DNA of 64,000 nt from positions 3,412,001 to 3,476,000 of the forward strand of contig OZ249436.1 in NCBI GenBank assembly GCA_965235115.1, given 5' to 3'. Below are positions 8,462-27,337 of this stretch, in pieces. Each line of letters starts with the position of its first letter. Within the stretch, counting starts at the first letter, position 1. The notes under the pieces are model-generated. The model was not told the origin of the DNA. It saw only the letters and a program-made list of their open reading frames with translations, and ran no database searches. The stretch comes from Laetmonice hystrix. Taxonomy: Eukaryota. Position numbers and translations under genes: made by a program.

Positions 8462-8470
8462 AGTAGTACT

Positions 8471-8610: not shown

Positions 8611-8670
8611 AAATTTGAATAATAGGTTTCTTTTTTAGATGATAACGTTTTTTGTACGTGAGATGAAAGT

Positions 8671-9038
8671 TGTAGAACGAGCACATGATGATGTGTGTTA
8701 GGTGAACGTTGTTTGATAATGAAAGTTATAGAACGAGTACATGATGATGTATGTTAGGTGAACGTTGTTCGATAATGAAAGTTATAGAACGAGTACATGA
8801 TGATGTATATTAGGTGAACGTTGTTCGATAATGAACATTGTAGAACGAGTATTATGATGATGTGTGTTAGGTGAACGTTGTTTGATAATGAAAGTTATAG
8901 AACGAGTACATGATGATGTATATTAGGTGAACGTTGTTCGATAATGAACATTGTAGAACGAGTATTATGATGATGTGTGTTAGGTGAACGTTGTTTGATA
9001 ATGAAAATTGTAGAAGGAGCACATGATGATGTGTATGC
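8671..9038 (+). repeat. 56/57-bp minisatellite in the left TIR (~6.5 units)
   Basis: Unit T(G/A)TAGAACGAGTACATGATGATGT..TTAGGTGAACGTTGTT(T/C)GATAATGAA starting at 8671, 8727, 8783, 8839, 8896, 8952 and 9009 (partial). Confidence 0.95.
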
Positions 9039-9357
9039 AGATGACTTGGTAATGAGGCGAGAGGTGTGATGTCGGTTGACCATATTGGTTGACCAAGGTC
9101 AACGACCTTGAGCCAACGGCCTTGACCGGTTGACCTTGACGTTGACATGACGTTGGCCGTTCCAGCTGACGGTGTGGTGGGGGATATGAATGAAAGGTAA
9201 TGGAGAGGTAACTGAAAAACTAGGTCAGCAGGTGTAAATGAATGGTAGCCAAAATGAGATGATAATAAAAGAGGTGAGGTGTGGACAAGAGGTGTGTGGA
9301 CTGAACGGATAGTTGGACGAAGAATCGAATCGAAAAAAAAAAATGGAACTGAACAAC

Positions 9358-10356: not shown

Positions 10357-10390
10357 GAACGTGTAGGACAGTGGTCCCTCCCCCAACATG

Positions 10391-10419
10391 ATTGGTTGAT
10401 TGGGAAGGACATATAAATA
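10391..10419 (+). promoter_or_regulatory. Putative Pol II promoter for the ATPase (two ATTGG/CCAAT boxes plus TATAAATA)
   Basis: ATTGG at 10391 and 10399, TATAAATA at 10412-10419, about 90 nt upstream of ATG 10506. Confidence 0.5.
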
Positions 10420-10505
10420 GGTCACAGTGGAATGACATCACTATGTTAATGTTCTGCGATAGAGTCGTTACTCAGAGCGCGTTGACTTGGTCGATAGATA
10501 GTAGA

Positions 10506-11192
10506 ATGGACCCGAGGACAACAAAGTGGTGGGAAACAACCAGCCTGGCCCCTTTTAAAGAGAGGTCCAGCATATGCGTGGTTGGTGGCACGGGAAGTGG
10601 AAAAACGTACTGGACGTTCAGACTGCTGCAAAATATGCCTGGCATGTTTGAAGGAGAGGCACCTCAAAAGATTCTCTACTGTTACGGAGTTTGGCAGTCG
10701 TTGTATGATGAAATGGACAGCGTAATACCCGGGCTAATCTTTCACGAGGGTCTGCCATCCCCTTCGACGTTGGACGAACTCTCTGCTGATGGGGGACACC
10801 ACGTCATAATCATCGACGATCTGATAGATCAGATGGTAAAGAGTCCAGATATGGAACTGTTACTCACGAGGGGCTGCCATCACAAAAACCTGAGCGTCCT
10901 GTACCTAACTCAAAACCTGTTTCAAGGTGGGAAGAACGCTCGCACTATTGCACTGAATACCTGGTATTTGGTCATTTTTAAAAACCTGAGGGATGCCTCG
11001 CAAATAGGGTACTTGGCAGCCCAAATGTTTCCTGGGAAGAAGAGTGTTTTGAAAGAAGCCTATCAGGACGCGACCAAAGAACCCTATGGTTGTCTGGTGA
11101 TTGACAGCTCGCCTCATGCCGACGAGAAATACAGGTTGCGGACGCGAATATTTCCAAACGAAGATCCTGTAGTGTACGTTCCAAAGATATAA
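10506..11192 (+). CDS. A32/FtsK-like genome packaging ATPase (228 aa from the likely ATG at 10506)
   Basis: Walker A GGTGSGKT, Walker B IIIIDD, and the Polinton ATPase motifs TRGCHHKNLSVLYLTQNLF and RTIALNTWYLVIFKNLRD. Confidence 0.95.
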   Translation: MDPRTTKWWETTSLAPFKERSSICVVGGTGSGKTYWTFRLLQNMPGMFEGEAPQKILYCYGVWQSLYDEMDSVIPGLIFHEGLPSPSTLDELSADGGHHVIIIDDLIDQMVKSPDMELLLTRGCHHKNLSVLYLTQNLFQGGKNARTIALNTWYLVIFKNLRDASQIGYLAAQMFPGKKSVLKEAYQDATKEPYGCLVIDSSPHADEKYRLRTRIFPNEDPVVYVPKI

Positions 11193-11239
11193 AAGTAAGT
11201 CGCGGGGTTCCTGGATGATTAGTGTGACCAGAGAACGTC

Positions 11240-11566
11240 ATGAGTAAACGCGTCAGAGCAAACTGGCCACTGATACAGTATTTGATGCAAACACTACCAC
11301 CGGTGCAGTTGAAAGCAGTCTTGACCACGCTGACATCTGATCAAGTGAATGCCTTGGGGGAGATTGCAGTAAATGTGTTGTATGGAACGATACCCATAAC
11401 GGCTGCCTACAAGCGTAACGGAAAGCGTTTTGCATCGAAGATCGAGTACATTGGAGATTCAACCCATAGCTGGAAAAAAAGAAGGACATTGATTCAAGCT
11501 AACGCCAATATCGTTCACTTCTTACTCAATGCAGCAAAGCCTTTCCTGAAAAGTCTTATACAATGA
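11240..11566 (+). CDS. Small Polinton hypothetical protein (108 aa)
   Basis: Clean ORF preceded by TATAAAAG (11188-11195). Its stop overlaps the next start (ATGA), and it lies in the structural gene block. Confidence 0.7.
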   Translation: MSKRVRANWPLIQYLMQTLPPVQLKAVLTTLTSDQVNALGEIAVNVLYGTIPITAAYKRNGKRFASKIEYIGDSTHSWKKRRTLIQANANIVHFLLNAAKPFLKSLIQ

Positions 11567-11901
11567 GTTCCAGGAAAATGGTTCTAGTGCCTATAGACAA
11601 ATACAATATTTTGCAAAAGTATCAAGTGGCAAAATCTCCCGCAGGCAGTGTGCTGGCCAATGCTGTGACGTCACCTTTAAACAGAGGAAAAGAAACACCC
11701 GAAACCCAAGAAGTCAGGGGAAAAGAAGAAGAAAAAGAAGAAGAAGAAGAAACTGTAGCCTCTCAACAAGTGATTCGACCCGACCTGACTCGTTTGAAGG
11801 TCGATGAATTAACCAGGAGAAGCAACAGGGCAATGAGGAGGAAACGTCGTCCCTCAAGAACAGACCAAAGCTTTAAGCGTGCCTCGTGGATCAAGATCTA
11901 G
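11563..11901 (+). CDS. Small hypothetical protein (112 aa) with an acidic run and basic C-terminus
   Basis: ATGA-coupled to the upstream ORF. N-terminal KMVLVP, poly-E tract, RRKRR and terminal WIKI. Confidence 0.6.
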   Translation: MSSRKMVLVPIDKYNILQKYQVAKSPAGSVLANAVTSPLNRGKETPETQEVRGKEEEKEEEEETVASQQVIRPDLTRLKVDELTRRSNRAMRRKRRPSRTDQSFKRASWIKI

Positions 11902-11936
11902 CTACACAGCAGTATACAGTCGTGACCAGGTCAGCC

Positions 11937-13043
11937 ATGGAAAGATATCTGCAAAGACGGTATAACGACCCTTCACAACCAGGAAGTTTCCAGAGCTTAC
12001 AGAAACTTTATACAAGTGCTAAAAGGGATGGACAACACGACATTACAAGAAAGGACGTTCAGCAGTACCTGCAAAAGGACAATGCTTATACCTTAAACCG
12101 ACAAGCTATCACTAAATTCCCAAGAAACCGGGTGGTAGTTGAAGGGATAGACTCTCAGTGGGATGTGGATCTCGCTGATCTCTCGTTGTTGGTGAAGGAT
12201 AATGATCAGTACAAGTACTTTTTACTTGCCATAGATATATTTAGCCGATACGTTTGGGTGAAACCGTTGAAGACAAAATATGCCAAGGAGATTGTACGTG
12301 CTCTAGAATCCGTTTTTAAAGACGGAAGACAGCCACAGTCGGTTAGGACAGACGGTGGCAGGGAATTTCAAAATCGAGTAGTCAAATCGTTCCTGAAAGA
12401 TCGAGGGGTACATCTGTTTAGAACTTTTAATGAGACACAAGCCAACTATGCGGAACGTGCTATTAAAACGATCAAATCCAGGATGTATCGTTACCTGATC
12501 AGCAAAAACTCGCTTCGATACATTACCGTCCTTCAAGATCTGGTAAAAAGCTACAACAAAACTGTGCACAGGAGCCTTGGACGATCGCCCTCAGAAGTAA
12601 ACGGCAACAATGAATCTGAGGTCCGGCTCGATCAGTACCTCCTCAGGAGACCGCCAAGGAACGACGAAGACATTCCAAGGCAGCGCATCTGGTTTAAGAT
12701 CGGTGATCAGGTACGGATTTCCTTCAGACGGGAACCGTTTGATCGTGAATACAATCAGCGTTGGACGGGTGAAGTATTTGTTATATCTGACAGACGCCGA
12801 CGCCACGGGATCCCCATCTATAATTTAAAAGACTGGAACGATGAACCTATTAAAGGCACATTTTATCAACACCAGCTTCAAAAGGTCGATGTGAGCGACG
12901 AAGACAACTTCAAGATCGAAAAGGTGTTGAAACGTAGGAAAAGAAACGGGAAAAAACAAGTGCTTGTCAAGTGGTTGCACTGGCCCTCAAAGTTCAATCA
13001 GTGGATCGACGAAGACATGATCGATGACCCAGGAAATGGATGA
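11937..13043 (+). CDS. Retroviral-like (rve/DDE) integrase with C-terminal chromodomain (368 aa from ATG 11937)
   Basis: Catalytic motifs WDVDLAD, VRTDGGREF and YAERAIKTIK. Chromodomain FKIEKVLKRRKRNGKKQVLVKWLHWPSKFNQWI. Confidence 0.96.
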   Translation: MERYLQRRYNDPSQPGSFQSLQKLYTSAKRDGQHDITRKDVQQYLQKDNAYTLNRQAITKFPRNRVVVEGIDSQWDVDLADLSLLVKDNDQYKYFLLAIDIFSRYVWVKPLKTKYAKEIVRALESVFKDGRQPQSVRTDGGREFQNRVVKSFLKDRGVHLFRTFNETQANYAERAIKTIKSRMYRYLISKNSLRYITVLQDLVKSYNKTVHRSLGRSPSEVNGNNESEVRLDQYLLRRPPRNDEDIPRQRIWFKIGDQVRISFRREPFDREYNQRWTGEVFVISDRRRRHGIPIYNLKDWNDEPIKGTFYQHQLQKVDVSDEDNFKIEKVLKRRKRNGKKQVLVKWLHWPSKFNQWIDEDMIDDPGNG

Positions 13044-13446
13044 CTTTTTCCTGTTTCTTTCTAGTGACGATTCTTTGGACTACTTTCCGCACAATACGCC
13101 GGGGGCGTTTACCATAAAATTGCACGAAACAGTGCATCTACAAGATGGACCCTGGTTTTGTGCGCTGAGGTATTTGAAATGTAAATCGACGGGTCCCACA
13201 GACATATACGTCTTCTGCGATCTTGTTGTCGATAGCTACGTCAGGAACGGAAAGTTGCCCATTCTACAACATGCCGTGCAGCACACAAAACGACACGTTA
13301 GCGAAAGTTTTGATTCTGTCGTATCCTTTCGATTGTCAAGACAAGTCTTCAACACTCTGACCGTGTATATAAAGAACGATAAAATGAAGACACCGGCATT
13401 CACAAAAGAACCGACGCGCTGCACTCTTCACATCTTTAAAAAATGA
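13024..13446 (+). CDS. Minor capsid (penton-like, single jelly-roll) protein, 140 aa
   Basis: N-terminus FFLFLSSDDSLDYFPHNTPGAFTIKL...W.CAL, then IYVFCDLV.DSYV...LPIL, and C-terminal CTLHI, matching the Polinton penton pattern. Confidence 0.8.
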   Translation: MTQEMDDFFLFLSSDDSLDYFPHNTPGAFTIKLHETVHLQDGPWFCALRYLKCKSTGPTDIYVFCDLVVDSYVRNGKLPILQHAVQHTKRHVSESFDSVVSFRLSRQVFNTLTVYIKNDKMKTPAFTKEPTRCTLHIFKK

Positions 13447-13814
13447 ATGAGAAACCTACGTTAGAACAGTGGAAACAACATTTTCGAGACATGCAACGCG
13501 GAACGACTAAACCAGGGAACAATGGCATGTGGCGCGTGCGTCATTACACAGAGAAGTCCAAGGACAGTGGGAATCCAAGTAGGCCGGTGATAAACTTGGT
13601 ATCGCCGACCCAGATGGCAGTACAGCAAGCCAGCCTGAAAAACAGAAAGAGAAAACTGAACGGTCGTGCTTCAAAGACAGTTGCAAAGCGTGCAAAAATT
13701 GCGACTGCAAAAAAGGGGAAAAAGCCAAAGGTAATCGGAAGAAGAAAACAACCACCACTCAAAATTAAAAAGAGGGGGAAAACGCAGCCCCTCAGGCAAA
13801 AGGTCTGGTCGTAA
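13443..13814 (+). CDS. Small highly basic protein (123 aa), possible DNA-condensing core protein
   Basis: ATGA-coupled to the penton. K/R-rich C-terminal half. Lies between the penton and the MCP. Confidence 0.65.
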   Translation: MNEKPTLEQWKQHFRDMQRGTTKPGNNGMWRVRHYTEKSKDSGNPSRPVINLVSPTQMAVQQASLKNRKRKLNGRASKTVAKRAKIATAKKGKKPKVIGRRKQPPLKIKKRGKTQPLRQKVWS

Positions 13815-13906
13815 GGATATAAAAGGAAAGGCACACGCAAACGGGATGTCACAGGCAGATAAATCACCGATCCAAGCACACCTATCCAAGCTTCAAAAAG
13901 AGAATC

Positions 13907-15220
13907 ATGGCCGGGCACGGTGATAACGTGTCCCTGTTTTACACGCCAATCAGTGACAAGACCGTGGACAATGTTCAATGGATCGAACATAGGCCCGTCG
14001 GTCAGCTAAGCAGTGATGGGGCCTTGGAATTCAACGTGCCAGGAAATAGTTCAAAGTATGTAGATCTTGAGAACACACGGCTGAAAATCAAGCTGAGAAT
14101 AGTACAAGGAAACGGCAGCATGGTTCCAACTGGAGACAAGGGTGCAGCAACGCCTGCAATAGCCAAAGTAGGACCCGTGAACCTGACTTTGCAATCCCTT
14201 TGGCGCCAAGTCGACGTGAGTCTTCAGCAGCACATCATTTCTCCTGGAGTTGCTACCAAATATCCTTACAAGGCATACCTGGAGACGATTCTACAATACG
14301 GGGGTGACGCTAGAAGGACCCGGCTACAATCCCAACTGTTTTACAAGGACCAAGGAAACGCGGCTGAAAACGACCCTTTGGACGGTACAAATGCTGGACT
14401 TATTCAAAGAACCTTGCTGACCGTAGCAAGTCGGGTCGTGGACCTGGAAGGACCCGTTTACATGGACATTTGTCAACAAAACAGATACATCCTAAACGGT
14501 GTCACGATCAATTTCAAATTTTGGCCATGCAACAACCAGTTCAGACTCATGAGCTCGAACCCCACTGCCGATTACAAGATTGAAATCTTAGAAGCGGCTC
14601 TACAGGTGTGCATGATAGACGTTTCTTCTGATGTCATGATTGCCCATGCCGAGGCCTTGAAAGAGGGCCCGGCGAAATACTTTTTTGAGCGTACCGACAT
14701 GAAGTCTTTTGCGATAGCCCAGGGACAATACGGGTGCTCTCTGGAGAACATTTATCAAGGAGAGGTTCCAAGTCAAGTCATCGTAGGACTGGTGTCGTCT
14801 GAAGGATTTATGGGGAGCTTTTCGAAAAACCCGTTTGACTTTAGACCTTATGCATGTAACTTTATCGGATTCTATGTGGACGGGAAAAGCCAGCCGAGCG
14901 AACCGTTGACGCCAAACTACAAAGGCGGGAATTATGTGTCGGCATATCTGTCGACCTTTGGAGATTTCCACAAAAAGGATTTCGGTAATGCCATTTCAAG
15001 AGAGGACTATACAAACGGATATACTTTGTACGTTTTTGATGTGTGTCAAAACCATTGCGAAAAGTTTTCTCAGCATACCAAGAAAGGACATACTAGATTA
15101 GAAGTGAAATTCGCTGAAGCACTACCCGAGGCCGTCACTCTTGTCATGATGGCTAAGTTCCCTAACGTTCTGCACATTGATCAGGCCCGTAACGTTCAAG
15201 TTATTACGTCTCAGCATTAA
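13907..15220 (+). CDS. Major capsid protein (double jelly-roll, Polinton PY type), 437 aa
   Basis: Motifs LEFNVPG..YVDL..TRL, SLWRQVDVSL, YPYKAYLETIL, P.QVIVGLV...F.GSFSKNPFDF, GYTLYVFD and RLEVKFAEALP. TATAAAAG at 13818-13825 upstream. Confidence 0.93.
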   Translation: MAGHGDNVSLFYTPISDKTVDNVQWIEHRPVGQLSSDGALEFNVPGNSSKYVDLENTRLKIKLRIVQGNGSMVPTGDKGAATPAIAKVGPVNLTLQSLWRQVDVSLQQHIISPGVATKYPYKAYLETILQYGGDARRTRLQSQLFYKDQGNAAENDPLDGTNAGLIQRTLLTVASRVVDLEGPVYMDICQQNRYILNGVTINFKFWPCNNQFRLMSSNPTADYKIEILEAALQVCMIDVSSDVMIAHAEALKEGPAKYFFERTDMKSFAIAQGQYGCSLENIYQGEVPSQVIVGLVSSEGFMGSFSKNPFDFRPYACNFIGFYVDGKSQPSEPLTPNYKGGNYVSAYLSTFGDFHKKDFGNAISREDYTNGYTLYVFDVCQNHCEKFSQHTKKGHTRLEVKFAEALPEAVTLVMMAKFPNVLHIDQARNVQVITSQH

Positions 15221-15653
15221 ATCATTAAATCTAAAAACACTTGGGAGTAAGTGTCTAGTCTAGTAACAACTAGAAGCAGTAGTTAGAATTCAATGTATTT
15301 TTATTATCATCATCGTCACCCAACCTCTTGTCTTCTTCCGTCATGTTAACAAATGTTAACACCAAATTGTAACAACAAGATAACTGGTTAATAAAAAGAA
15401 ATCATTGTATTTTGTTTTTCTTTGCATTCTTATTAACAACAATGCCCAGGTGGGTCATTTGCACTAGCCAATGACACTCACCGTTATACACAAAAGTGTT
15501 ATTACATAAAATGTTATTACATTATTACATATTACATGGGTCAATTGTACTAACCAATGACATAAGAGTGAAAAAAGTTAACAACTAGTTGTAACACCAA
15601 GATAACCGGAATCGAGTACAGTGGTCATAGGGGGAAAAGTTATACACACGAGT

Positions 15654-15716
15654 GACACACACACACACACCTCCACACACACACCTCCACACACACCTCC
15701 ACACACACACACACAC
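15654..15716 (+). repeat. (CA)n microsatellite between the convergent MCP and PolB 3' ends
   Basis: ACACAC tract with CTCC interruptions. Confidence 0.9.
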
Positions 15717-15729
15717 ATAAAAAAAGGAG

Positions 15730-18700
15730 CTAATACCCATACGGTAACGTGTCAAGATTGGGTTGTATCACCCTTTTAGTGTAAACCATACGATATTTCT
15801 TGTCTTCCACCTTGTTAAATATTTTGAAGGAACGCGGGTCTCTGCTAATTTTGGAGGGGTTTGTGATCCTGACTGTTTGTACCCCTTGTGGTTCACACAC
15901 CGTGCTTTTTAAAACATTAAAATTTATCTTTTTTGAATTACTGTAATTTAAAGTAAATCCTCGGACTTTGCACACTTCTTTGCCCGAGGCCGTCACGTAA
16001 GCATAATTTTTAGGTCCGGCAGACACATATTCAGTAATGTAATCCCCATCCAGTTCGTCAGTCAAATCTCCCAGATAATCCCCCGTTGGAGGGTCGTACT
16101 CGCCCTCCTTCGACACGTACATGACCGAGTCAGTGTCGAAATAACACAAGCGCCTTCCAATTTTATCGAGGACATCGTACAACTTTAATCTTGCCCAACA
16201 GGTGGTAAATGAGGCGAGAAAAACGTTTGTGCTGTTGTCGGGACCGCGGCAGTCGCTTGAATCGCGGTACTTGAGGTGAAGCATGTCCGAACTGACGATC
16301 GTAAAGTCAATCACCTCTTTTGTGGGATCAGTGAGGAGGGAATAAAAAAGACAGGCTTCAGAATCATGAATGAATTGCGATCTAGGGCGATTAAGACGTT
16401 GGCCAAATTTTCCCCAAAAACTGTTGAGGCATAGCTTCGCCAAAGAGCGCAATCCGGGGTTCTTTCTGATAGAATCGTAATGTAACTCTATCCCTTCATG
16501 ATCCCGATATTGGTTAATATACTGTCGTTTCTGGTCTTCGGTTTTACACCATTGCGGCCAGTCAGAGGCCTGCTGTTTGATTTTCAGGAATGTGTCTATA
16601 TATTCCTGGAAAAGGCCTGGTGTCTTACCATCTTTACTACATGTGACGGTGTCTTCCCAGTGATACACCTCGTACACTTTTACGATGGTGTATCCTTTCT
16701 CTAACGCTCGCCACAGTTCGGGGGTGCACCACGTGCCTGTTAACGCTCTTTCGTCATCAGAGCAAGCACAAACAGTCGTAAGTTCTCTGTCTGCACAGGT
16801 ACGACACAACGGGAACTTTAGTTTGCCGTTTGACCTGTACGGGAGAACCGGACTGTACAGCCCATGGGGTGGCAGGACTTTCACCTTGGCAATGCCGAAA
16901 TAGGATGTCAAGTCTTTGTCAACTTTGTCCATGGTCAAAATGGTGGGGTGCCCTCGGGGGTATGTCGCATATTTGTTCACGCTCGGGTAAAGACTGGTAA
17001 AATCGACATACTTTATCCGCTCCCCATCCTGAACTTTGTAATAGAGTTTACTGGCGTTAGTCCTGCCGCCGAAAAAGGAATCTCGGGGGTTTAATCTGGG
17101 TTGAACGTCCAGAGATTTGACAAAATCTCTCAGGATTGGATTTTGGGAATTTTCCCTTCGAAACTCACATTCCCACTTGGAACGGTAACTGTATCCCAAG
17201 CTACGGACGTGAGCTTCCCTTGTGAGGGTCAACGTGTGCAACTCGGATGTGGTTTGTCGGGTTAGAGGATGTCTCGTTGTTCTGTCAGGAAAACAACGAG
17301 GACATCCGTGAAAAACACACCCTAAAAATTCAAAGATTGTGTTTGTGGCAGGCTCGAATCCGTCTGCTCGGTAGGACGTGCCAGGTATTCTGAACTCGTC
17401 CCCATTCAGTGCATGCCGAATGGTCCGACCCTCACTGTGGACGAGCCATTCCAGCCACTGAATGGACACGTGGCTGTACTGATCTCTGCTATAACCATGT
17501 GTTGGCACTTGGGCAATGTCGGAAGATTCAAACTTCGAGAAAATCACGTCCCAGTCCTGACAAACCTGGGTAGCGCTCATCCAACAGTCGTGGATATAGT
17601 ACAGCCAAGAGTTGTCCTGCAGGCAGGCCTCCACACACAATTGGTCACCCGTTATTTTGTGTTTCAGATTAACGATGTGTTTTTCCTTCAAATGTTTGGT
17701 CTTAAAGACCGCCATGCACACTGAAGCTATTGTCACATACTGAAAAGGATCAACAGCCCCTGCCAAAGAGTCGTCGTCGGAGCTTGTGGTTACGGCAAGG
17801 AGTAAATTTCGAAATTTCATGCATGCTTCACGGAGAATCGTGACGTCAGAAATGCAATATTCTTTCATTTCTTTTCTGAAATCAAAAACTCGGCCGCTCT
17901 GCTGAGCATGCCATCCTAGAAACTCGCCTCTCTCTTTTGACGACATGTGGGCAACTCCGTAATCTTCAATGTCAGGATAGTTGCCCACATAGTGTTGGTT
18001 TTCCACTCTGTTAAACAGGTGAGGAAAATGACCCTTCTTTAGCTCAGCTAAATCAAAAGCTTTTGGTAGAGCAGAAAGCTTCATCGGGAAATAATTTAAG
18101 GAATCTAGGATCCTGATGTTCAACCCTTTGCCCACAGACATGTACATTATTTTTGAACCGTTATAAATTAGGGAATCGGGTCGAATGGATTGGCTAATTA
18201 GATATTCCAGAACGAAATATCCGTCATAACCACGCATGTTGTGGGCTAGGAGAGTGAACCCCCTGTGCTGAACGTTAAACACATACTCTCCAAAACTGTG
18301 AGCTGTGGTATCACCCTCAAAAATGCGCTGTCGAGCACCACATCCATCACATGGAAGACCAGCAAACGACTGAGATTCCCTATCCCACTTGTTGCACTGA
18401 CTACACCGATCGCCGCAGATCTCGCATGCCTCACTGATCGGGGAGTTTTGACACGCGTGACACGTCTTCTGGATTACGATATAATTTGGTACGTGAAAGT
18501 TTCTGCCACAGGAGGGATCCTGACAGTTTTGGCAAGTCCGACATGTGGCACACAATTCCCGCTTACCCACACAACCAGTGCACAAAAGCTTTTTCCGGGA
18601 ATAACCTCCAGAACACTCAAAAACACTGTCTTGACGACACTCAAAATCGAAAAACATAAATTTTGCCTTGGTCAGGTCCTTGTTCGGCGGAAGGGCACGG

Positions 18701-19989
18701 TGGAAACACAGGTGGTCCCCCGAAACGTACTGGTTACAGGTGCGGCAAAACCATTCCCCACATTTGTGTTTAGCAACGTGTCGCTTCTGCCGATCAACGA
18801 CGGCCTTGCAAGAAACACAACGCCACCAGCGTTGACATTGAGAGATTTCAGTATTCTTTTGGGGGTTTCTTTTTTTTGTTTGGGGAATTTTCTTGTGTCG
18901 GGCAAAACAGGCCTCACTCCTACACGTCATGTTACAATCTTGACAAACCACTGTACTGTCGGTCTGTGGACACCGTGTGGACTTGCAAACATTGCAGGTG
19001 GTGAGGCACGAATGCCTCTCTCTATTCTGGTAGGGCTTGAGACAGGCCTCGCAGAAATAGGAGTGGCAGAAAAAGCCTGCAATGTTTGCAATGGAGTGAA
19101 AGTGACCCTCCCCTTCAACGTCATCGACAAAATACAAATACAGCCGTTTTTTGGTTGATGGCGTTAAAGGCTGCTTTTCTTGTTGTGGGGGTATGCGGAG
19201 AAATTGGTTCCCCAGACGAGCGCTGAGGACAAAGATGTCCACACCGAGGACCTGCTCAAATTTGGAGATGTCATTGAGACATGCAGGTCCATCGGTGGAC
19301 ACCCCCGCCATTCCACATATCTTTCTTGCCAGCTTTTCTTGATCCCTCCTATCGCTGCGTTTAACATTTTGGTAATACCACTGAGGGACCTGATTATACC
19401 TTAACATAATGTTTAGCGTGTCTCGGGTGGTCAATCCGCGTGTCAAGACTCCCCATACTTGCGGGGACACAACGTGGGCTTTGGTCCACGATACACCTAT
19501 GGCGCGGGCAAGACAAAGGTGATCGGCATTAACAATTTCTACCAGAGACCTCTTTCTGTGAATAGAATTGTCCTCGCCCGATAACTGGGTGAGCTGCATC
19601 CGATCACCGTAACCACCTATGGGCATTTCTATTGTGCCGATGTCCACTCTAAAATTTTCGTCGATTGCCAAATCTTTTTCACTGTTCTCGACATTTTCGA
19701 CGGTGTCATGGATGTCTTCGATCTCCAACCTTTCTATGGGGCGAAGGGGTACAACGATTGGACTGTCCAAACTAGGATGGTGGATTACAATGCGAATAAG
19801 GTCCGTACCTTTAAGATGGTCGGCAGCTTCTGACACCATGTCGCCAAACACATTGCGTAGGGAACGGTGCACCTCAGACGGTTTACGACCTTGCATATGC
19901 GCTTGATTTATTTTAACTTCATAGGTTGTGTCCCGCGCACCGTTACACTTGAAAGTCCGGGTGCTCCGCTGCCTCAATGTGTATGGCTC
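15730..19989 (-). CDS. Protein-primed family B DNA polymerase, main (last) exon, 1419 aa
   Basis: ExoI FFDFEC, ExoII AHNMRGYDGYF, ExoIII YCISDV; polymerase motifs VDFTSLYP, KLCLNSFWGKFG and YFDTDS. Also Cys-rich Zn-finger regions, a VSR-like insert (RADGF...EFLGCVFHGC) and an OTU-like Cys/His pair (DHLCLARAI...GHF). A splice acceptor (TTCTTACAG) ends at 19990. Confidence 0.95.
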   Translation of the reverse strand, partial: EPYTLRQRSTRTFKCNGARDTTYEVKINQAHMQGRKPSEVHRSLRNVFGDMVSEAADHLKGTDLIRIVIHHPSLDSPIVVPLRPIERLEIEDIHDTVENVENSEKDLAIDENFRVDIGTIEMPIGGYGDRMQLTQLSGEDNSIHRKRSLVEIVNADHLCLARAIGVSWTKAHVVSPQVWGVLTRGLTTRDTLNIMLRYNQVPQWYYQNVKRSDRRDQEKLARKICGMAGVSTDGPACLNDISKFEQVLGVDIFVLSARLGNQFLRIPPQQEKQPLTPSTKKRLYLYFVDDVEGEGHFHSIANIAGFFCHSYFCEACLKPYQNRERHSCLTTCNVCKSTRCPQTDSTVVCQDCNMTCRSEACFARHKKIPQTKKRNPQKNTEISQCQRWWRCVSCKAVVDRQKRHVAKHKCGEWFCRTCNQYVSGDHLCFHRALPPNKDLTKAKFMFFDFECRQDSVFECSGGYSRKKLLCTGCVGKRELCATCRTCQNCQDPSCGRNFHVPNYIVIQKTCHACQNSPISEACEICGDRCSQCNKWDRESQSFAGLPCDGCGARQRIFEGDTTAHSFGEYVFNVQHRGFTLLAHNMRGYDGYFVLEYLISQSIRPDSLIYNGSKIMYMSVGKGLNIRILDSLNYFPMKLSALPKAFDLAELKKGHFPHLFNRVENQHYVGNYPDIEDYGVAHMSSKERGEFLGWHAQQSGRVFDFRKEMKEYCISDVTILREACMKFRNLLLAVTTSSDDDSLAGAVDPFQYVTIASVCMAVFKTKHLKEKHIVNLKHKITGDQLCVEACLQDNSWLYYIHDCWMSATQVCQDWDVIFSKFESSDIAQVPTHGYSRDQYSHVSIQWLEWLVHSEGRTIRHALNGDEFRIPGTSYRADGFEPATNTIFEFLGCVFHGCPRCFPDRTTRHPLTRQTTSELHTLTLTREAHVRSLGYSYRSKWECEFRRENSQNPILRDFVKSLDVQPRLNPRDSFFGGRTNASKLYYKVQDGERIKYVDFTSLYPSVNKYATYPRGHPTILTMDKVDKDLTSYFGIAKVKVLPPHGLYSPVLPYRSNGKLKFPLCRTCADRELTTVCACSDDERALTGTWCTPELWRALEKGYTIVKVYEVYHWEDTVTCSKDGKTPGLFQEYIDTFLKIKQQASDWPQWCKTEDQKRQYINQYRDHEGIELHYDSIRKNPGLRSLAKLCLNSFWGKFGQRLNRPRSQFIHDSEACLFYSLLTDPTKEVIDFTIVSSDMLHLKYRDSSDCRGPDNSTNVFLASFTTCWARLKLYDVLDKIGRRLCYFDTDSVMYVSKEGEYDPPTGDYLGDLTDELDGDYITEYVSAGPKNYAYVTASGKEVCKVRGFTLNYSNSKKINFNVLKSTVCEPQGVQTVRITNPSKISRDPRSFKIFNKVEDKKYRMVYTKRVIQPNLDTLPYGY

Positions 19990-20134
19990 CTGTAAGAAAC
20001 GAATGCACACGAATTGTAAACAGCGTGTCTTTATTACTGCGTCTTCTTTATCGCAATGTACAATAATGTAAGTGAAGTATAAATAAATAAATAAATAAAA
20101 AAATAAATAAAAAAATAAATAAATAAATAAATAC

Positions 20135-20869
20135 CATGGTATCAGCATCATCGCTGTCCTCATCGGTTCCCGAGAAACCAGCGACATAGGGGAGGGTCAT
20201 CGGCTGGAACAAGGGATAAAACACAACCTATTTACACAGGCGAAATATATTGAGTATTTCACGTATTTATTATTATTTATTTATTTATTTCAATTTTTAT
20301 TATCATTACTATTATGAAGAAAGAAAAGTGGTGACGTAAGGCGTAAGACGTACCACGTAACACAACTTGAGACTGTTTTTACCTCGAATGTTGAGTTTCC
20401 TGTACCGGGACCTTCGGGAGACCATCCCGAAGGTCCCGGTACGGAAGACTCCACCGAGTATCCCGACTGAGGGGACCCAGCCGAAGGGCCAGTCACGGGA
20501 GACAGCGTCGAGGGTCCTGGAGACATAATCAACTGTCGTGGAGAGAAAAAAAAAATCAAATGAGGTAAAATAATAAAAAAAGATGAATGGATGAATGAAT
20601 GAATGAATGAATGAATGAATGAATAAAGTAATCCTTATGTATTACTTATAAAGTAAAGTGGTCCTTACCAGGTCTTCTCCTCTTAGCAACCGTTCCAAGA
20701 TGCTCTTGGCTCGTTTAGGAGGAGGATGTTGTCTGTCAGACTCGCAGTCTGGCTTCCTTTTCCGTGTTGTCTGAAACAATTTAAATTCATTTTACTTGAA
20801 TAATTTCATGTTTTTAATTTAATGTCTTATTTAATATTCGTCGTCTTCTTCATCTTCTTCTTCTTGTTC

Positions 20870-20905
<36 letters not shown>

Positions 20906-22159
20906 AGTACCTTCTCCTCCTGCATGCTTTTCACCTCCTCCACCGCCTTGCTTGTCTCCTCCACCGTCATTGTTGCATCTTTTTCCTCCTGCCGAAATTC
21001 AGCGTCCCAACTCACCTCCTCAACGATATCGATATCGTTCTGAAACGATGGTGCACGCAAGTCAATAAACACCTCAAGGTAGAGTTTAAAACTATGGCTT
21101 GTCACAGCGAGAATAGTTAAATAGCGAAAATTATAATAATAAAATTGATAGAAAAACTAATATAACTAATACCTCTTCCTCCTTCTCTTGGTCAAATTCC
21201 GAGTCCCAATCAACTCCCTCGACTAAGGCCTCGATATCGATATCGTTCTGAAACGACGGTGCACGCACGTCAATAAACACCTCAAGGTAGAGTTTAAAAC
21301 TATGGCTTGTCAGCGAAAATAGTTAAATAGCGAAAATAATAATAATAAAATTGATAGAAAAACTAATATAACTAATACCTCCTGCTCTTTCTCCTGTTCG
21401 AAGTCCGAGTCCCAATCGACTCCCTCGACAAGTGCATCGATATCAATATCGACGGTTGTATTGTTTGGCGCCTCATTTAAGTTGTCAGAAAATGAGGCGC
21501 CATGATCGATCGGAGTCGGATCAGTCTGAAACAATCACGTGTTTGTAACAATAAACTCCGAAACAAAGAATGCATAGATGTAAGTCTGTGCAAACAAATG
21601 TTTGTAAAACTCAATAATTCCATTATTTCCAACAAGAGCTGGATATCCATTCTATGTGTGGACTACCATCCTTACCGGAGTGTCGGGTGCCTCCGCCCCC
21701 CAGTCTATAGTGTCCAGCAAAGCTGCCACCTCTGCTGGATCAAAGTTCTGAAAGTCAAATCAAATGAAGGTTGAGCAGACAGTTAGAGATTTAGAGATTA
21801 TCACATATCTGCTATGCTCTGAACGCACAAGCGTAAGTAAAAGACCTAGCCTGCCCACCTGTCGTCACGCCAACGACTCCGTCACTGACCTTACTTGACC
21901 CCCACTTGACCCTAACACGTCCCCCATCACACTACCCTAGTAGCGCTCCATTACAGACCTTGATAGCACATACAGCCATAGGCTTACGTGTGGGGGTGTG
22001 GGTGGGTGGGTGTGTGTGGGTGCGTGTGTGGGTGTGGGTGTGTGTGGGTGGGTGGGTGTAACCGTTTTAAATAAGAAAAGTCAATGAGTTTACCTGGATA
22101 TCGGTGCTGCTGCTCATGTTAACGAGCTCTTGATCAATCCAGTCAAGAATACCATCCAT
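20135..22159 (-). CDS. Eight predicted upstream coding exons of the PolB gene: 22159-22094, 21747-21676, 21525-21379, 21247-21173, 21039-20911, 20770-20669, 20532-20383, 20203-20135 (270 aa)
   Basis: Each exon is bounded by YAG and GTA, has a length divisible by 3 and is stop-free. The chain starts at ATG 22159 and joins in frame to 19989. Introns are mostly AT-rich or contain microsatellites. Confidence 0.8.
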
Positions 22160-22348
22160 CTGTAAGAATAAAAATGTTTATATATTCTCTCAGTATATAT
22201 CCTAGACATAATGGTACTTCCATTCAGTTCACAGAGAAACATTCTTCGAGACAGATCTTGGTTAGGTCAACGAGAGTCTCGTTAGTTAGGTCAACCATAT
22301 CAAGATTTATATCAATATTTATAAGAATACAGTTAAGCTAAAACAATC

Positions 22349-22936
22349 ATGTACATGGCTACATGTGTACTGTTATCACTTGTAATAATGCTAAACGCTG
22401 AAACCGAGACTGGTTATACGTGTGCTCCATGCCAATGCAAACCTTCGGGGTTGGTAATGTGTGCCGACAAAAACCTTTCAACGTATCCACAATTTGCAAG
22501 AACTGACGATTCTCTTCGATTGGATTTAAGAAGCAACAGGATAACACGACCACCTCTTCGCCATTACGCCTTACAGTTTAAAGAAATTGATTTACGAGGC
22601 AATCCCCTCTCGTGTATGTTATGGGATGCATTGCCACATACAGTCATGGAAAGGATTCTTCAAGACAGATGTACCACCAATTCAACCCTGCCAAGTCAAC
22701 ATAAGGACAACATAACGGAGGATGATCCACGCCCTTCATACAGGGGTTTACTACCCCCAAAGGAGACGAACAACCCCCTGCTACTGCTTGTGTTAGGTAG
22801 CGGTTCAGGGGTCGTAGCACTGTTCATGGCCTCTCTAATTGCTCTCCGCTTGAAGCACAACTATTTACGTATACTCGCTAACAAACATGGTCGTTTTGAC
22901 GGATGGAATACCGACAGTACGCCTAGGACTATCTAA
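22349..22936 (+). CDS. Type I membrane protein with LRRNT cap and short leucine-rich repeats (195 aa)
   Basis: Hydrophobic signal peptide, LRRNT (CAPCQCKPSGLVMCADKNLSTYP), LRRs LRLDLRSNRIT and FKEIDLRGNPLSC, a TM helix (LLLLVLGSGSGVVALFMASLIAL) and a short tail. Confidence 0.82.
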   Translation: MYMATCVLLSLVIMLNAETETGYTCAPCQCKPSGLVMCADKNLSTYPQFARTDDSLRLDLRSNRITRPPLRHYALQFKEIDLRGNPLSCMLWDALPHTVMERILQDRCTTNSTLPSQHKDNITEDDPRPSYRGLLPPKETNNPLLLLVLGSGSGVVALFMASLIALRLKHNYLRILANKHGRFDGWNTDSTPRTI

Positions 22937-23025
22937 GTTTTCCCCTTTTTTCATTCCTAGCATAGTGATACCCTTGTAGTTCTAAGTAGTTGTAACAAAC
23001 AAAAGTTGTAAAAAAAAAAACTTAC

Positions 23026-23156
23026 CTTAAGACGTCTAATGATGCGCTTGTCCGTGAGGAATAGGGTGTTTTGTGTCAACCTGTGCGTTACCACTGTGTC
23101 CCAATGCGAACTCTGGTGGTGATGACCGATGTTCTGGCGCGTGACCTCTTTTATAG
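23026..23156 (-). promoter_or_regulatory. Putative PolB promoter (TATAAAAG) and non-coding first exon ending at donor AAG|GTAAGT (23026/23025)
   Basis: CTTTTATA at ~23148-23155 on +, a consensus donor, no ATG in the exon, and an acceptor TTCTTACAG directly before ATG 22159. Confidence 0.6.
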
Positions 23157-24525
23157 GGTGTGACCCCAGGTCATCGCGGTGGGGTGAAATCCTGTCGCTG
23201 GACCTATTTTCTTTACAAGGACTATGACTACCGTTAATTATATTTATGTATTAAACTTTTTTTAATATAGAAATGATCGTGTCCTGTGTCTGAAACAATA
23301 TGTTACTTGGATATTCGCAAAATAAATTGTTAACTGATTTTCCACAATCATTCAGTTAACCAACATGACCTTGACCTTGTCGGCCTGACCCTGTCCAGTC
23401 TTCACTTTAACCTCAGAGCAGATAAGTCCGCTTAGCGTCCCTCTTTGGCAGTGTCACCTGGGGGATGCAACAAGTCTTGACATGCAACACCTGCATCCTT
23501 TTTGTGAGGATCAGCGTCAACAAAGTGTCTTGCGAACAACATGTGCGGGTGGGGGGATATAATATATATAAATAAATATAACAAACAAACAAACAAAACA
23601 ACAAACAACAACAAAATAAAAATAAAACAACCAAGAACCGTATCGTGAAATACCCGCAGGAATCAGGCTGGGTTTTGTCTGTCATGAAAGAATATCTCAT
23701 TATGTTATAACCAATGGGTTTTTCATATTTTATATGAAATAATATCCCAAAGATTACAACAATATGGGGATATTACCGTACGGGGCCATAACCACACTTT
23801 ACTTTATTTTTCTGTTTGAGAATAAAATGAGACGTTCATTCCCAGTGCATCAATGTGTCTATCACTATATTTTCGCCTCTAAATTAATAGTGAACATGCG
23901 TTCTTTATGTCTGATCATTACTCTTTATTTATTTTATTTGCTACTCTTTATTTGTCAAAACCTTAACCCTAAAACCCTCAGCCATACCGTCCCATGGTCA
24001 GCTTACCTGACTCGTTACCATGACAACCGTCACTGTCGGCTGCACTGCAGAAGGGGTACAGAAAAACTGGCGGCGCCCGCTCGCGCATGCTTCAAAATAA
24101 AGGTCTATAGACATTCATGGCTAGAACCGATAGTTTTTCTCCTACAAATGCCATGACATGAGCTTCAATGTTTCCTCTTTAATTTGTCCTCCTCATTTTT
24201 TTCCCCCCGCAACGTCTTTTTTATAATGGACAGTTGACCTTCGTCTTAAAAAAAACAAGGCGAGCATCAAGCCATTGGTAGAGGTGTCAGTGTCAGCATA
24301 AATACTGAAGTCACTATAGTTTTGAACGGTAGACGCCGCGTGACTGCCGCGACAAGGCGAGCGGCACCTCCTTGGCAGGTGTGGGATCAGTCGTACATGC
24401 CAGTACATCGCATAAATGCTGACGTCCGAACGATGGACGCCACGCATCTTTAACACACCTGCAGGGGTATCGAGTCACCAGCGTGCAGAGGGCGGGAAAA
24501 GACAATCACAAAACTGTCCACGCAC

Positions 24526-24633
24526 GGGTCTCATTCACAAAGCACACGCGGACTATTGTTGTCCATTTAGTTTGCGAGTCCGCAAACTATTGTTGTCCAT
24601 TTGGTTTTTGCGTGTCCTTTGTGAATAAGGCCC
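24526..24633. mobile_element. Possible ~108-bp MITE-like inverted-repeat element
   Basis: GGGTCTCATTCACAAAGCACACGC...GCGTGTCCTTTGTGAATAAGGCCC imperfect inverted ends, an internal hairpin TAGTTTGCG..CGCAAACTA, and flanks CAC / CAG. Confidence 0.4.
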
Positions 24634-25034
24634 CAGTGTTTTACCGAGAATTCTGTGAGAATGCCATCAGTAGACTCCATCTAAAGACCAAACCCGGAAT
24701 AGTTTTCCCCCTGCCCCTTTCCCTTTCCCTTCCTTCCTACTTCCTTCCTTCCTTCCTTCCATGACAATTAGTTTCTCAGCATTATCTGTTCAAGTGGTGA
24801 GGAGGATTGGATTGTTTAATCGGATTCAATTGGATTGGGACCAGGCTGGCTGTTTTCACACACGCACACTCTTTTTAGGCGTTGATACCTTATGCTATGT
24901 GAATGGGTGCAGTAATCTTTGGGGCCGGGGTTCGATTCTAGTAGAGGACTATGTATTTTTCAGGTCGGACATTGTCAAAGTAACATCTAAATATAAGGCA
25001 TCTATATAAGGCATCTATATATAAAAATCACATG

Positions 25035-25051
25035 CGCACACACACGCACAC

Positions 25052-25097
<46 letters not shown>

Positions 25098-25115
25098 CAC
25101 CCCCACACACACGCA
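25035..25115 (+). repeat. (AC)n microsatellite
   Basis: Direct observation. Confidence 0.9.
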
Positions 25116-25300
25116 CAAAAATCACATACAAGATATGTTGATTTCAATTTTTTTTTTAATTCGACACCAAAAAACAACGTACTACATACCAACTACATAC
25201 CATCCAGAATACCAAATATATGACGCATGAACGTGCTATATATCAAATACATGTAATCCAGAACACTAAATTCATGGCGAATCAATGTGCTACATACCAA

Positions 25301-26008
25301 CTACATGTCATCCAGAACACCAAATTCGTACAGAGACATTTCGGTGGCTGCTGTGGCGGACATCAGTACCTCTGCTGGATCTACATTTTTTATAAAGTTT
25401 AAAACGACCGCATAATACAACCCCTCCGCATCATACCACTTGTTCATATATCTACATGCCTCGTATAGTCGAGGTACAGAAATGCGCAAGTGACAGTATC
25501 GTGCATAACATGCCACAAGTCCGGCCTTGTCAGACTGACAACCGGCCATGTGGTCTTTCTGACTCGATCGGTCATAGATGCAACCATAGCATTTCGTTTT
25601 CACACGATTGTCATACTCCTTTTTCAAAATATATCGATACACAGTCCCAATTAATTCCTCTGCACATTGAGTGGGGATAGTCTCCGTCATCACTTCTAGT
25701 GTGTACTCCTCCCCTAACGGTTCCTTCAGATGGCCATCGTCATGGCAGGTGTCAGAGTCCAAATAGTACTGAGGCGAGACGCAAACACACTCCCCTTGAC
25801 CGTCCACACTTTTCCACCGGTACACATTCATACTGGTACGAATACGTTTCTCAGCAGGGGCGTCCCCGTCCTCTTCGTATTCCAACTTTCTCTTTGGCGC
25901 CTTCCTTTTCTCCCCCGTCGTTAAGGAGACTATCGCAAAATACTCTGACCGGCCCACGTTCATCGACTGCAAACTGCAACACCAGACATAATGATTAGGA
26001 TCTGACAT
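25301..26008 (-). CDS. Accessory protein (235 aa) with NLS-like segment and a CxxC..SQxxH..C putative zinc-binding motif
   Basis: Long ORF containing KRKAPKRK...EKRIR and CYGCIYDRSSQKDHMAGC, which resembles a motif I recall from Maverick accessory proteins. Confidence 0.72.
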   Translation of the reverse strand: MSDPNHYVWCCSLQSMNVGRSEYFAIVSLTTGEKRKAPKRKLEYEEDGDAPAEKRIRTSMNVYRWKSVDGQGECVCVSPQYYLDSDTCHDDGHLKEPLGEEYTLEVMTETIPTQCAEELIGTVYRYILKKEYDNRVKTKCYGCIYDRSSQKDHMAGCQSDKAGLVACYARYCHLRISVPRLYEACRYMNKWYDAEGLYYAVVLNFIKNVDPAEVLMSATAATEMSLYEFGVLDDM

Positions 26009-26087
26009 CGATGCTTAGGTGGAGACCTACATGAATACGTTTGACATGAATTTAATACAAAACATCAAAATAAAAAAACTCTACTTA

Positions 26088-26384
26088 CTAGTCCCTCCGT
26101 CCATATTTGTCCTTCCTGACGTAGCACACGTATACCCTGTCTTGGTAATCGACGACCGTCACCTTCCAACTTTCGGTCGATATCAACACTTGGGCCTTGC
26201 CACCAGCAAAACATTCCACCTGACGCGCCGCCATAGAACTCGCCTGCACTACACCGACAGGAACATATATCGTCCGGCGATCTTCTCCTGGTTTCATTCT
26301 CGTCAACTTCAATACAGACTCCGTATATTCACAAACCAACGTGGCGCTCAACTGAACCTCCTCGATGCATGCCATTGCTGCCAT
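26088..26384 (-). CDS. Small protein (98 aa), weakly PC4-like ssDNA-binding fold
   Basis: ORF downstream of a TATA-like TTATAAAG (~26467-26474, minus strand) near the right TIR. The beta-rich segment WKVTVVDYQDRVYVCYVR resembles PC4. Confidence 0.5.
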   Translation of the reverse strand: MAAMACIEEVQLSATLVCEYTESVLKLTRMKPGEDRRTIYVPVGVVQASSMAARQVECFAGGKAQVLISTESWKVTVVDYQDRVYVCYVRKDKYGRRD

Positions 26385-26567
26385 TTTCTTCCCTCTCAGT
26401 TGTCGAACTCAAGCTCGTGACTCAATAGATGACTCGATAGATGACTCCTTTCCAGAATTTCCAACCTTTATAAGGGAACCACCCTATGTATCCCCCCACC
26501 ACATCCCCACACACCACCAGGTGGGGCGGCCAAGGTCATGGCAAGGTCAAGGCCAACCAGACAAGGT

Positions 26568-27337
26568 CGTTGGCTCAAGGTCGTTGACCTTGGTCAACCA
26601 ATATGGTCAACCGACATCACACCTCTCGCCTCATTACCAAGTCATCTGCATACACATCATCATGTGCTCCTTCTACAATTTTCATTATCAAACAACGTTC
26701 ACCTAACACACATCATCATAATACTCGTTCTACAATGTTCATTATCGAACAACGTTCACCTAATATACATCATCATGTACTCGTTCTATAACTTTCATTA
26801 TCAAACAACGTTCACCTAACACACATCATCATAATACTCGTTCTACAATGTTCATTATCGAACAACGTTCACCTAATATACATCATCATGTACTCGTTCT
26901 ATAACTTTCATTATCAAACAACGTTCACCTAACACACATCATCATAATACTCGTTCTACAATGTTCATTATCGAACAACGTTCACCTAATATACATCATC
27001 ATGTACTCGTTCTATAACTTTCATTATCGAACAACGTTCACCTAACATACATCATCATGTACTCGTTCTATAACTTTCATTATCAAACAACGTTCACCTA
27101 ACACACATCATCATGTGCTCGTTCTACAACTTTCATCTCACGTACAAAAAACGTTATCATCTAAAAAAGAAACCTAAAATTCAAATTTGGGGTCGGTTAT
27201 AAAGTCCTAGTCAATGTCAAGGTCACCCTGGGTGTCAAGGTCACCGGTCAAGGTCACGTCCGTGACCTTGACCGGTGACCTTGACCCCAGGATGACCTTG
27301 ACATTGATTTGGACTTTATAACGGCCCCAGTACTACT
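26568..27337 (-). repeat. Right terminal inverted repeat (770 bp)
   Basis: Reverse complement of the left TIR, with two extra 56/57-bp units. Confidence 0.96.
26648..27128 (-). repeat. 56/57-bp minisatellite in the right TIR (~8.5 units)
   Basis: Reverse complement of the left array plus one extra 56+57 bp pair. Confidence 0.93.

Follow-up and report, generated by a model that had tools for sequence, protein, structure and literature searches.

The core genes of vertebrate Mavericks have been described as intronless (PMC8097293), and those of nematode Mavericks likewise, with introns in cargo genes only (10.1101/2022.07.12.499685). The pPolB2 polymerases with VSR of molluscs were found as open reading frames (ORFs), in a text whose available parts use "intron" for group I introns only (10.1101/2023.08.22.554363); group I introns are also present in Polinton-like viruses (PMC12220804). 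No splice sites were found in the elements of PMC12721341, the available text of PMC8502044 nowhere contains "splic", and that of 10.1101/2024.03.18.585575 contains neither "intron" nor "splic", nor an acidic leader ahead of the terminal protein (TP). The Maverick/Polinton-like elements of dinoflagellates contain scattered introner copies, mostly gained after integration (PMC11957031). All these statements refer to the parts of the sources that were available. Our literature search returned no report of a spliced Polinton polB; earlier mentions may exist in Repbase, in the original descriptions of 2006–2007, or in supplements. Here, we analyse a stretch of 64,000 nucleotides of Laetmonice hystrix (GenBank assembly GCA_965235115.1, contig OZ249436.1, positions 3,412,001 to 3,476,000; hereafter the window, whose numbering we use), in which the DNA polymerase gene (polB) of an intact Polinton/Maverick element is very probably a spliced gene of 10 exons encoding an acidic, flexible leader ahead of the polymerase core.

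The window is a homogeneous satellite array (period 853–855 bp) broken by an 18,876-bp element at 8462–27337. The element has terminal inverted repeats (TIRs) of 575 nt with 99% identity (8462–9036 and 26763–27337), the termini AGTAGT and ACTACT, and a 6-bp target duplication, GTGTAT. Its PolB matches Pfam PF03175 (DNA_pol_B_2, E = 4.4e-48) and has the Exo I–III and Pol A–C motifs, the integrase ORF (11877–13043) matches rve (E = 9e-11) and a chromodomain, and the A32 ATPase ORF (10392–11192) matches Pox_A32 above its cut-off (E = 1.4e-5). By its TIRs, target duplication, PolB, integrase, and ATPase, the element is a Polinton/Maverick. The search of the genome (627 Mb in 35 contigs) identified a second copy of equal length (18,876 bp; contig C1, 30419851–30438726) with unrelated flanks and another target duplication, GCTCTG. 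The two intact copies differ in 32 alignment columns, all intronic, of which just three are substitutions. The different target duplication of the second copy indicates that the element moved recently, with its introns in place.

An earlier note, made from the letters and a list of ORFs, had proposed that polB lies on the reverse strand in 10 exons, with every coding intron in phase 0. Its anatomy proved accurate. All nine introns have GT and AG ends, the small coding exons are stop-free in frame 0 and multiples of three in length, and the coding exons (66, 72, 147, 75, 129, 102, 150, 69, and 4260 nt) sum to 5070 nt, i.e., 1689 amino acids and a stop. The eight coding introns of the window are indeed all in phase 0. 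Frame 0 is the sole open frame in seven of the eight small exons; the remaining one (20383–20532) is open in frame 2 too. Their GC content is 45%–60%, against 19%–35% in seven of the eight coding introns and 50% in the remaining one (21748–22093). The introns have the features of the U2 type: GT-AG ends, pyrimidine-rich acceptors, and, for coding introns, lengths of 113–346 nt.

The features of the unit, all on the reverse strand, follow one another as predicted below. The sequence contains a TATA box, TATAAAAG (23148–23155), which would serve as the promoter of the polB unit, followed by a non-coding exon of the 5′ untranslated region (UTR; 23026–23125, start approximate). The interval 23135–23026 is free of ATG, and the donor at 23025 is the best of 193 GT. 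The 5′ UTR intron (22160–23025, 866 nt) combines the best donor and the best acceptor of the region and directly adjoins the ATG at 22159, as the note had stated. Exon E1 (22094–22159, 66 nt) begins with this ATG, and its acceptor, ATG, and donor are retained in the decayed copy L008. Beyond intron 1 (21748–22093) come E2 (21676–21747, 72 nt), an acidic Trp module; E3 (21379–21525, 147 nt), with such a module at its end; and E4 (21173–21247, 75 nt), an acidic Trp module within a 206-bp tandem duplication (21024–21451); they are separated by introns 2 (21526–21675) and 3 (21248–21378). Intron 4 (21040–21172) precedes E5 (20911–21039, 129 nt), which has a stronger internal donor at 21015, also in phase 0, and intron 5 (20771–20910) precedes E6 (20669–20770, 102 nt), a basic exon (K+R 0.29) with RKRK and PPPKRAK, which we take to resemble nuclear localisation signals (NLSs). 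After intron 6 (20533–20668) lies E7 (20383–20532, 150 nt), rich in S, P, G, and T, with a rival acceptor AG at 20518–20517. Intron 7 (20204–20382) contains five AATAAA hexamers and is a candidate intronic poly(A) site, E8 (20135–20203, 69 nt) is acidic and terminates in ATG, and intron 8 (19990–20134, 145 nt, 23% GC) contains an (AAAT)n repeat and is open in the PolB frame. The YLFIYLFF stretch at the apparent N-terminus of the ORF is, as suggested before, the translation of this intronic repeat, (ATAA)x13.8 at 20079–20133.

The last exon (15730–19989, 1419 amino acids) would encode a putative TP domain, a vOTU, a Cys-rich region, an exonuclease, and a protein-primed PolB. It has vOTU-like Cys/His motifs at residues 156–164 and 295–300. 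A predicted model of the first 463 residues of the core (pLDDT 68.5) gave OTU proteases in the top 17 Foldseek rows, with weak matches (best E = 2.5e-3, no PDB match falling under 1e-3); residues 3–121 of the model form a beta-sheet with two helices, which weakly matched Y-family polymerase chains only. A resemblance to VSR at residues ~840–930 is visible by eye, a motif pattern for VSR giving no match, and the assignment to pPolB2/VSR is one by resemblance. Contigs from one sample cover introns and exons alike, with three joints off the predicted splice sites, and have no bearing on splicing.

We scored splice sites with approximate, generic matrices, which were not trained on host genes. The nine donors rank 1, 3, 4, 7, 9, 13, 22, 23, and 24 among 193 GT, and the nine acceptors 1, 2, 4, 6, 11, 12, 13, 14, and 15 among 197 AG. 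A segmentation blind to frame and ORF found E3, E5, E6, E8, and the acceptor at 19990 in five out of five settings, E2 in two, and E4 in one. A second programme, which requires an open frame and leaves the phase free, kept introns 2, 6, 7, and 8 in all of its 10 models, with every donor from 21675 onward in phase 0. Four of the five all-phase-0 models include an extra 42-nt exon inside intron 1 (21936–21895, phase 0), whose acceptor looks poor by eye.

The earlier note had proposed the conservation of splice sites in related Polintons as a check, and two sister families do have a matching layout. We took the upstream regions from six of the genome's many polB copies. Other Polinton families of the genome share 40%–50% polymerase identity with the window element, and the sister families B and C 44%–50%. 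Family C (L065 with L039 and L063 with L036, two subfamilies) has a 5′ intron of 223–226 nt ending in AG|ATG, a first exon of 204 or 210 nt (68 or 70 amino acids), and six coding introns. With the phase left free, its best stop-free chain is entirely in phase 0, by 10–13 bits in L036 and, in L039, in one of two settings. In family B, two or three coding introns follow an internal ATG, all of them in phase 0 by 9–11 bits, and the exon make-up varies from one 99-nt exon in L034 and L050 to exons of 57 and 63 nt in L048. In L033, L048, and L041, there is no Met in the open frame ahead of the core, and these copies therefore need splicing to obtain a start. L035, L037, and L064 showed neither the AG|ATG pattern nor a full leader, L037 being interrupted upstream. 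The comparison of the two C subfamilies reveals purifying selection at the codon level: the six small exons have a pN/pS of 0.38 in the predicted frame and of 1.19 and 1.24 in the others (0.20 in the core), with values of 0.27, 0.23, 0.18, and 0.56 for exons 1, 3, 4, and 6, and indels are multiples of three in 9/9 cases in exons and in 6/40 in introns. The spliced 10-exon model and its phase-0 pattern draw their support from sister families, codon-level selection, and the intron-free relatives described below. A separate lineage, family D (L041:728–1497, polB sense; e.g., C3:1256054), encodes its leader of 220 amino acids in one exon; its only intron, in phase 2, interrupts the first conserved core motif and is favoured by 27 bits, and three copies have identical match scores.

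The closest named polymerases are those of the molluscs Ruditapes, Mya, and Gigantopelta (43%–46% identity). Among 21 database relatives, eight carry 120–260 residues ahead of the core, and in seven of these the extension is acidic (14%–27% Asp/Glu). Most of 28 metagenome loci have a Met-started leader in the core frame, of 90–190 amino acids in the closest. The acidic leader is in one frame with PolB in P0001, P0002, P0004, P0006, L067, L068, L071, L074–L076, L078, and L081. These leaders share the motif D..A..C.EDG.W, duplicated in P0004, P0006, and L074, and exons 2, 3, and 4 of family C each match its C.EDG.W part (P = 0.0005 each). A tree of the first ~460 residues of the core (27 rows, five of 32 having been excluded for early stops) groups the window element, families B and C, and P0007 in one clade (97/95), with family D and the bivalve group outside. 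The leader, present in the ORFs of relatives, is therefore an old part of the polymerase, and the introns and the expansion are new. In 4 of 14 intron-free relatives (L071, L074, L076, and L078), an acceptor-like AG lies at the ATG or no more than 3 nt from it, and the 5′ UTR intron adjoining the start may predate the coding introns. The search of viral contigs gave 218 pattern matches and no relatives.

The leader of 270 residues contains 25% Asp/Glu and 31% P/S/T/G, compared with 12% and 23% in the core. E2 resembles E4 (P = 0.003) and also E3 and E5 (P = 0.02–0.03) relative to shuffles, 11 of the 15 changes between E3 and E4 are at third codon positions, and introns 3 and 4, in the 206-bp tandem repeat, differ in 4 of 133 columns (97% identity). 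By these resemblances, E2–E5 are copies of one acidic Trp module. Duplicated intron pairs stand out in the window family (A_i3/A_i4, z = 41; A being this family) and in family C (C36_i1/i2, z = 22); overall, intron similarity is confined to tandem neighbours or to orthologous introns of sister copies. The idea that every intron derives from the one in the 5′ UTR was not supported, as no cross-family similarity or similarity to that intron rose clearly above shuffles across all pairs of 27 introns (best z ~5). Outside Polinton copies, the genome search returned the repeat of intron 8 and other short repeats. The introns of the element differ in this from introners, which form families of nearly identical introns scattered over unrelated genomic sites. 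Within the tandem modules (21040–21378), introns differ by 3% and leader exons by 20%; relative to the decayed copies L004–L006, the values are ~7% and 11%–17%. Homogenisation, constraint on introns, or fast evolution of the leader may account for this difference between introns and exons. The leaders of P0001–P0004, P0007, L067, L068, and L074–L078, as well as E7 of the window, contain (P/A)GPS or PSTS motifs, mostly right before the core, which presumably recall USP7- or SPOP-binding motifs.

The note had also held that uniform phase 0 is unlikely by chance. A small excess is real, but the eight introns are not independent. With a phase-0 share of 46%, the human figure (PMC3632108, as given in its available part), from which that of the host may differ, eight independent introns would all be in phase 0 with a probability of 0.46^8 = 0.002. 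Since E2–E5 derive from one module and introns 3 and 4 are 97% identical, about five independent events are left, for which the probability is 0.02; the AG|G share of intron-free leaders (47/86) raises it to 0.05. Phase 0 is in general in excess, and protosplice sites are only part of the cause according to the accessible text of PMC3488318; here, we rejected proto-splice bias as a full explanation (weighting by the matrices gives phase 0 a share of just 0.35–0.38; AG|G at 47/86 in 14 intron-free leaders).

We consider it likely that the window holds an intact Polinton with a genuine, intron-rich spliceosomal polB, spliced by the host, whose ancestral leader was expanded by duplication. In this mechanism, host RNA polymerase II would start ~25–30 nt past TATAAAAG (23155), and the host spliceosome would remove the 5′ UTR intron and the eight short coding introns, joining the 10 exons. 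Translation from 22159 would then place a 270-residue leader ahead of the TP-vOTU-exonuclease-polymerase core. The leader might take the polyprotein to the nucleus and bind host proteins, after which the vOTU would release the TP, as proposed for such polymerases in the available text of 10.1101/2024.03.18.585575. The leader itself would be ancestral (90–200 residues in one ORF in related Polintons), and the introns would characterise a single clade of elements within this genome. Phase 0 would be uniform mainly because the founding introns fell between codons, one with its acceptor at the ATG and others where the AG-ending codons of Glu, Gln, and Lys are common, as in acidic sequence. The leader would then have grown as exon-plus-intron units were duplicated in tandem, and such units survive only where the phase is the same at their two ends.

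Several observations weigh against the 10-exon model, and splicing is read here from genomic DNA alone. The blind segmentation never picked the donor of intron 1 (22093; 50% GC) in five settings, and in every setting it preferred an acceptor at 20517, 16 nt downstream of 20533. Models with a phase-1 intron were up to 3.8 bits better in three of five settings of the second programme, the differences being limited to intron 1 and the beginning of E2; the model is weakest at intron 1 and at the intron 6 acceptor. The frame is lost with the stronger acceptor at E7 and with the stronger donor of family C exon 5. If L048 started at an upstream ATG, its first intron would be in phase 1, exons 2 and 5 of family C have no selection signal (pN/pS 0.78 and 0.99), and selection is weaker on the window exons when compared with decayed copies (0.49, with 0.82 and 1.05 in the other frames). 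The window exons did not significantly match the C.EDG.W motif of relatives (best P = 0.16), so that position and composition are the grounds for regarding them as homologous to the ancestral leader. Some donors are weak (4.1–4.3 bits), and one may suspect chance picks in decayed, AT-rich, repeat-filled DNA. We find this very improbable because the frame-blind segmentation recovers most exons, a sister family shows codon-level selection and indels of 3n, motif homology exists, and two intact copies have different target duplications. It is also quite improbable that PolB is made without the leader, from the ATG at 20187 on unspliced RNA or from the ATG ending E8, the upstream exons being a separate gene. 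Both copies do contain an unspliced ORF of 1485 amino acids, in which the PolB frame runs on through intron 8, the junction of E8 (ending in ACC-ATG) with the next exon (starting with G) is a good start context, and family C has a Met directly ahead of the core. Yet, we noticed no TATA resembling a promoter around 20200, a microsatellite forms the unspliced N-terminus, and 18% of block shuffles leave its frame open, relatives carry the leader fused to PolB in one ORF, L033, L048, and L041 lack a Met before the core, and frame continuity across all exons in three families would be needless.

There may also be a two-product switch, in which the leader exons mainly give a short, acidic, NLS-bearing regulator, by way of frame-shifting splice sites or intronic poly(A), and the PolB fusion is a minor product made via weaker sites. 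We regard this as a tentative possibility, which can hold together with the 10-exon model. The acceptor at 20517 scores 7.1 against 5.8 for 20533, shifts the frame, and leads to a stop after seven codons. Four of the five AATAAA of intron 7 (positions 82, 94, 98, 102, and 112) coincide with or closely follow the stop at which read-through from E7 (30 amino acids) ends. Exon 5 of family C has tandem donors 4 nt apart in 6/6 copies examined: the downstream one is stronger (7.6–9.7 against 5.0–6.7) and leads to a stop in exon 6 in L039 and L036 (the two copies translated), the weaker alone reaching PolB. Over the first ~100 columns of this exon, pN/pS is ~1.0 when they are read in the frame of PolB, against 0.7 in the shifted one, and the intron that follows is the best conserved (p = 0.19), with AATAAA or ATTAAA in both subfamilies. 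However, AATAAA is frequent in AT-rich introns (P = 0.12–0.23; 0.23 for any AATAAA in intron 7), the AG at 20517 is absent from one decayed copy, we noticed no comparable site in family B, the matrices behind the scores are approximate, and tandem GT donors 4 nt apart are a common by-product of the donor consensus. Each of these hints could arise by chance; jointly, they suggest a leader-only short protein beside the PolB fusion. Whether the clade controls its replication by splicing, one promoter giving either a short, E1A-like nuclear acidic regulator (via the strong frame-shifting sites and intronic poly(A)) or, via weaker in-frame sites, the leader-TP-vOTU-PolB protein, and the phase-0 array permitting modules of a host-binding leader to be gained, lost, or skipped with no damage to the polymerase, is a doubtful extension. 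If true, a transposon-like element would possess a splicing switch in the style of adenovirus, and ORF-only annotation would truncate these polymerases. The frame-shifting sites lead to a testable idea: an integrated element might hold down its polymerase and at the same time make a regulator. The earlier note had further taken uniform phase 0 as allowing modular exon skipping. That phase 0 is kept for regulated skipping of cassette exons, giving PolB isoforms with differing leader modules, seems improbable to us. It accords with phase 0 in all 17 coding introns on PolB-leading chains (eight in the window family A, six in C, and three in B), with the probability of 0.02–0.05 in the window alone after duplicates are collapsed, and with the variation of family B copies, whose frame stays intact (99 versus 57 + 63 nt). 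But A, B, and C share an ancestor, so that the 17 introns are not independent, one of them needs a weaker donor, and the intron of family D is in phase 2. Disorder and internal duplication accompany runs of same-phase exons, and duplication alone explains such runs, as far as the available text of PMC3632108 goes; the phase-0 excess does not demand skipping. The uniformity of phase is thus mostly explained by the known logic of exon duplication, and it matters less than the note supposed.

The great length of the 5′ UTR intron (866 nt, compared with 207–226 nt in B and C) is due to an antisense ORF of 195 amino acids inside it (22349–22936, + strand). This ORF has a signal peptide, a leucine-rich repeat (LRR), and a transmembrane segment, in a layout like that of GPIb-beta/GPIX. 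It matches Pfam LRR_1 below the family's cut-off (E = 0.0099) and LRR membrane proteins in Atlas (0.93). It is identical in the second copy and has weaker matches on C3 and C8. Homologues of 38%–47% identity lie upstream of polB, on the polB strand, in family C, and the LRR gene was therefore apparently inverted into the intron in the window family. The note mentions neither this gene nor the alternative frame-shifting sites and the AATAAA cluster of intron 7.

Elsewhere in the element, the ORF at 13895–15220 encodes a candidate double jelly-roll major capsid protein: Atlas relates it (0.98) to clusters in which 14%–30% of the members have DJR-like_dom, with a recognition value (2069) below the tool's threshold, and no capsid family in Pfam or PHROGs matched it. 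An unusual Polinton cargo is the RLIG1-type RNA ligase encoded at 9313–10356 (+; Pfam PF17720, E = 2e-103). No adenain ORF was found, yet the ATPase, the integrase, and the capsid-like ORF are intact. The adenain maturation protease, which most but not all Polintons have, had no family match in the scanned ORFs (overlapping sets of 15, 5, and 9), which a spliced or short gene could escape, and a six-frame scan for its motif gave a single match, outside every ORF of 100 amino acids. The region 23200–25300, possibly a further spliced or non-coding unit, extends for ~2 kb without long ORFs; it contains CA and CCTT repeats and, at 24006 (−), a strong donor-like site. Downstream of a TATA box near 26470 are two ORFs (25301–26008 and 26088–26384, −; 235 and 98 amino acids) with no match in PHROGs and none above cut-off in Pfam. 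The TIRs contain a 56/113-bp tandem array (8663–9036 and 26650–27136), with one extra 113-bp unit on the right side. A palindrome rich in GGTCAAGGTCA motifs lies close to each end of the element, and motifs of the GGTCAAGGTCA type recur near 23380 and in intron 1.

If polB is spliced as predicted, some Polinton lineages rely on the host spliceosome and retain introns through transposition. Since core Maverick/Polinton genes are annotated by ORF calling, the true N-terminus of the polymerase, a rapidly evolving acidic leader ahead of the TP domain, may have been missed or mis-called. The predicted junctions provide a direct RNA test of Polinton expression. In adenovirus E2B, the starts of pTP and Pol come from small spliced upstream exons, the TP and Pol being separate proteins and the leader only a few residues long. 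By analogy, protein-primed replication proteins would be reached only by splicing in both cases, here as one polyprotein with a multi-exon leader of 270 residues, and this acidic leader could act like a viral transactivator such as E1A. The window element would resemble the introner-bearing elements of dinoflagellates (PMC11957031) in having spliceosomal introns inside Polinton-like proviruses; unlike there, its introns are only in the polB leader, have no cross-family similarity, and travel with the element. With the runs of symmetric exons in human genes described in the available text of PMC3632108, it shares same-phase exons, low complexity, and tandem duplication, here in a replication gene of viral type.

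Among described polymerases, the modelled core is like TP-vOTU-pPolB (10.1101/2024.03.18.585575, available text), with what appears to be a beta-sheet domain and then an OTU-like domain before the exonuclease. The element shares its TIRs, 6-bp target duplication, integrase, A32-type ATPase, and protein-primed PolB, and also a candidate capsid-like protein, with pPolB2 Polintons, including the VSR subgroup of molluscs; where the mollusc polymerases were found as ORFs, the N-terminal 270 residues are here in eight predicted spliced exons. It likewise shares the (AGT)2//(ACT)2 ends, the 6-bp target duplication, and the core gene set with the Mavericks of vertebrates and nematodes. In the accessible text of PMC8097293, intronless core genes are a descriptive trait rather than a definition of the class, and the window element departs from this trait, with nine predicted introns in the core gene polB of an intact element found at two insertion sites.

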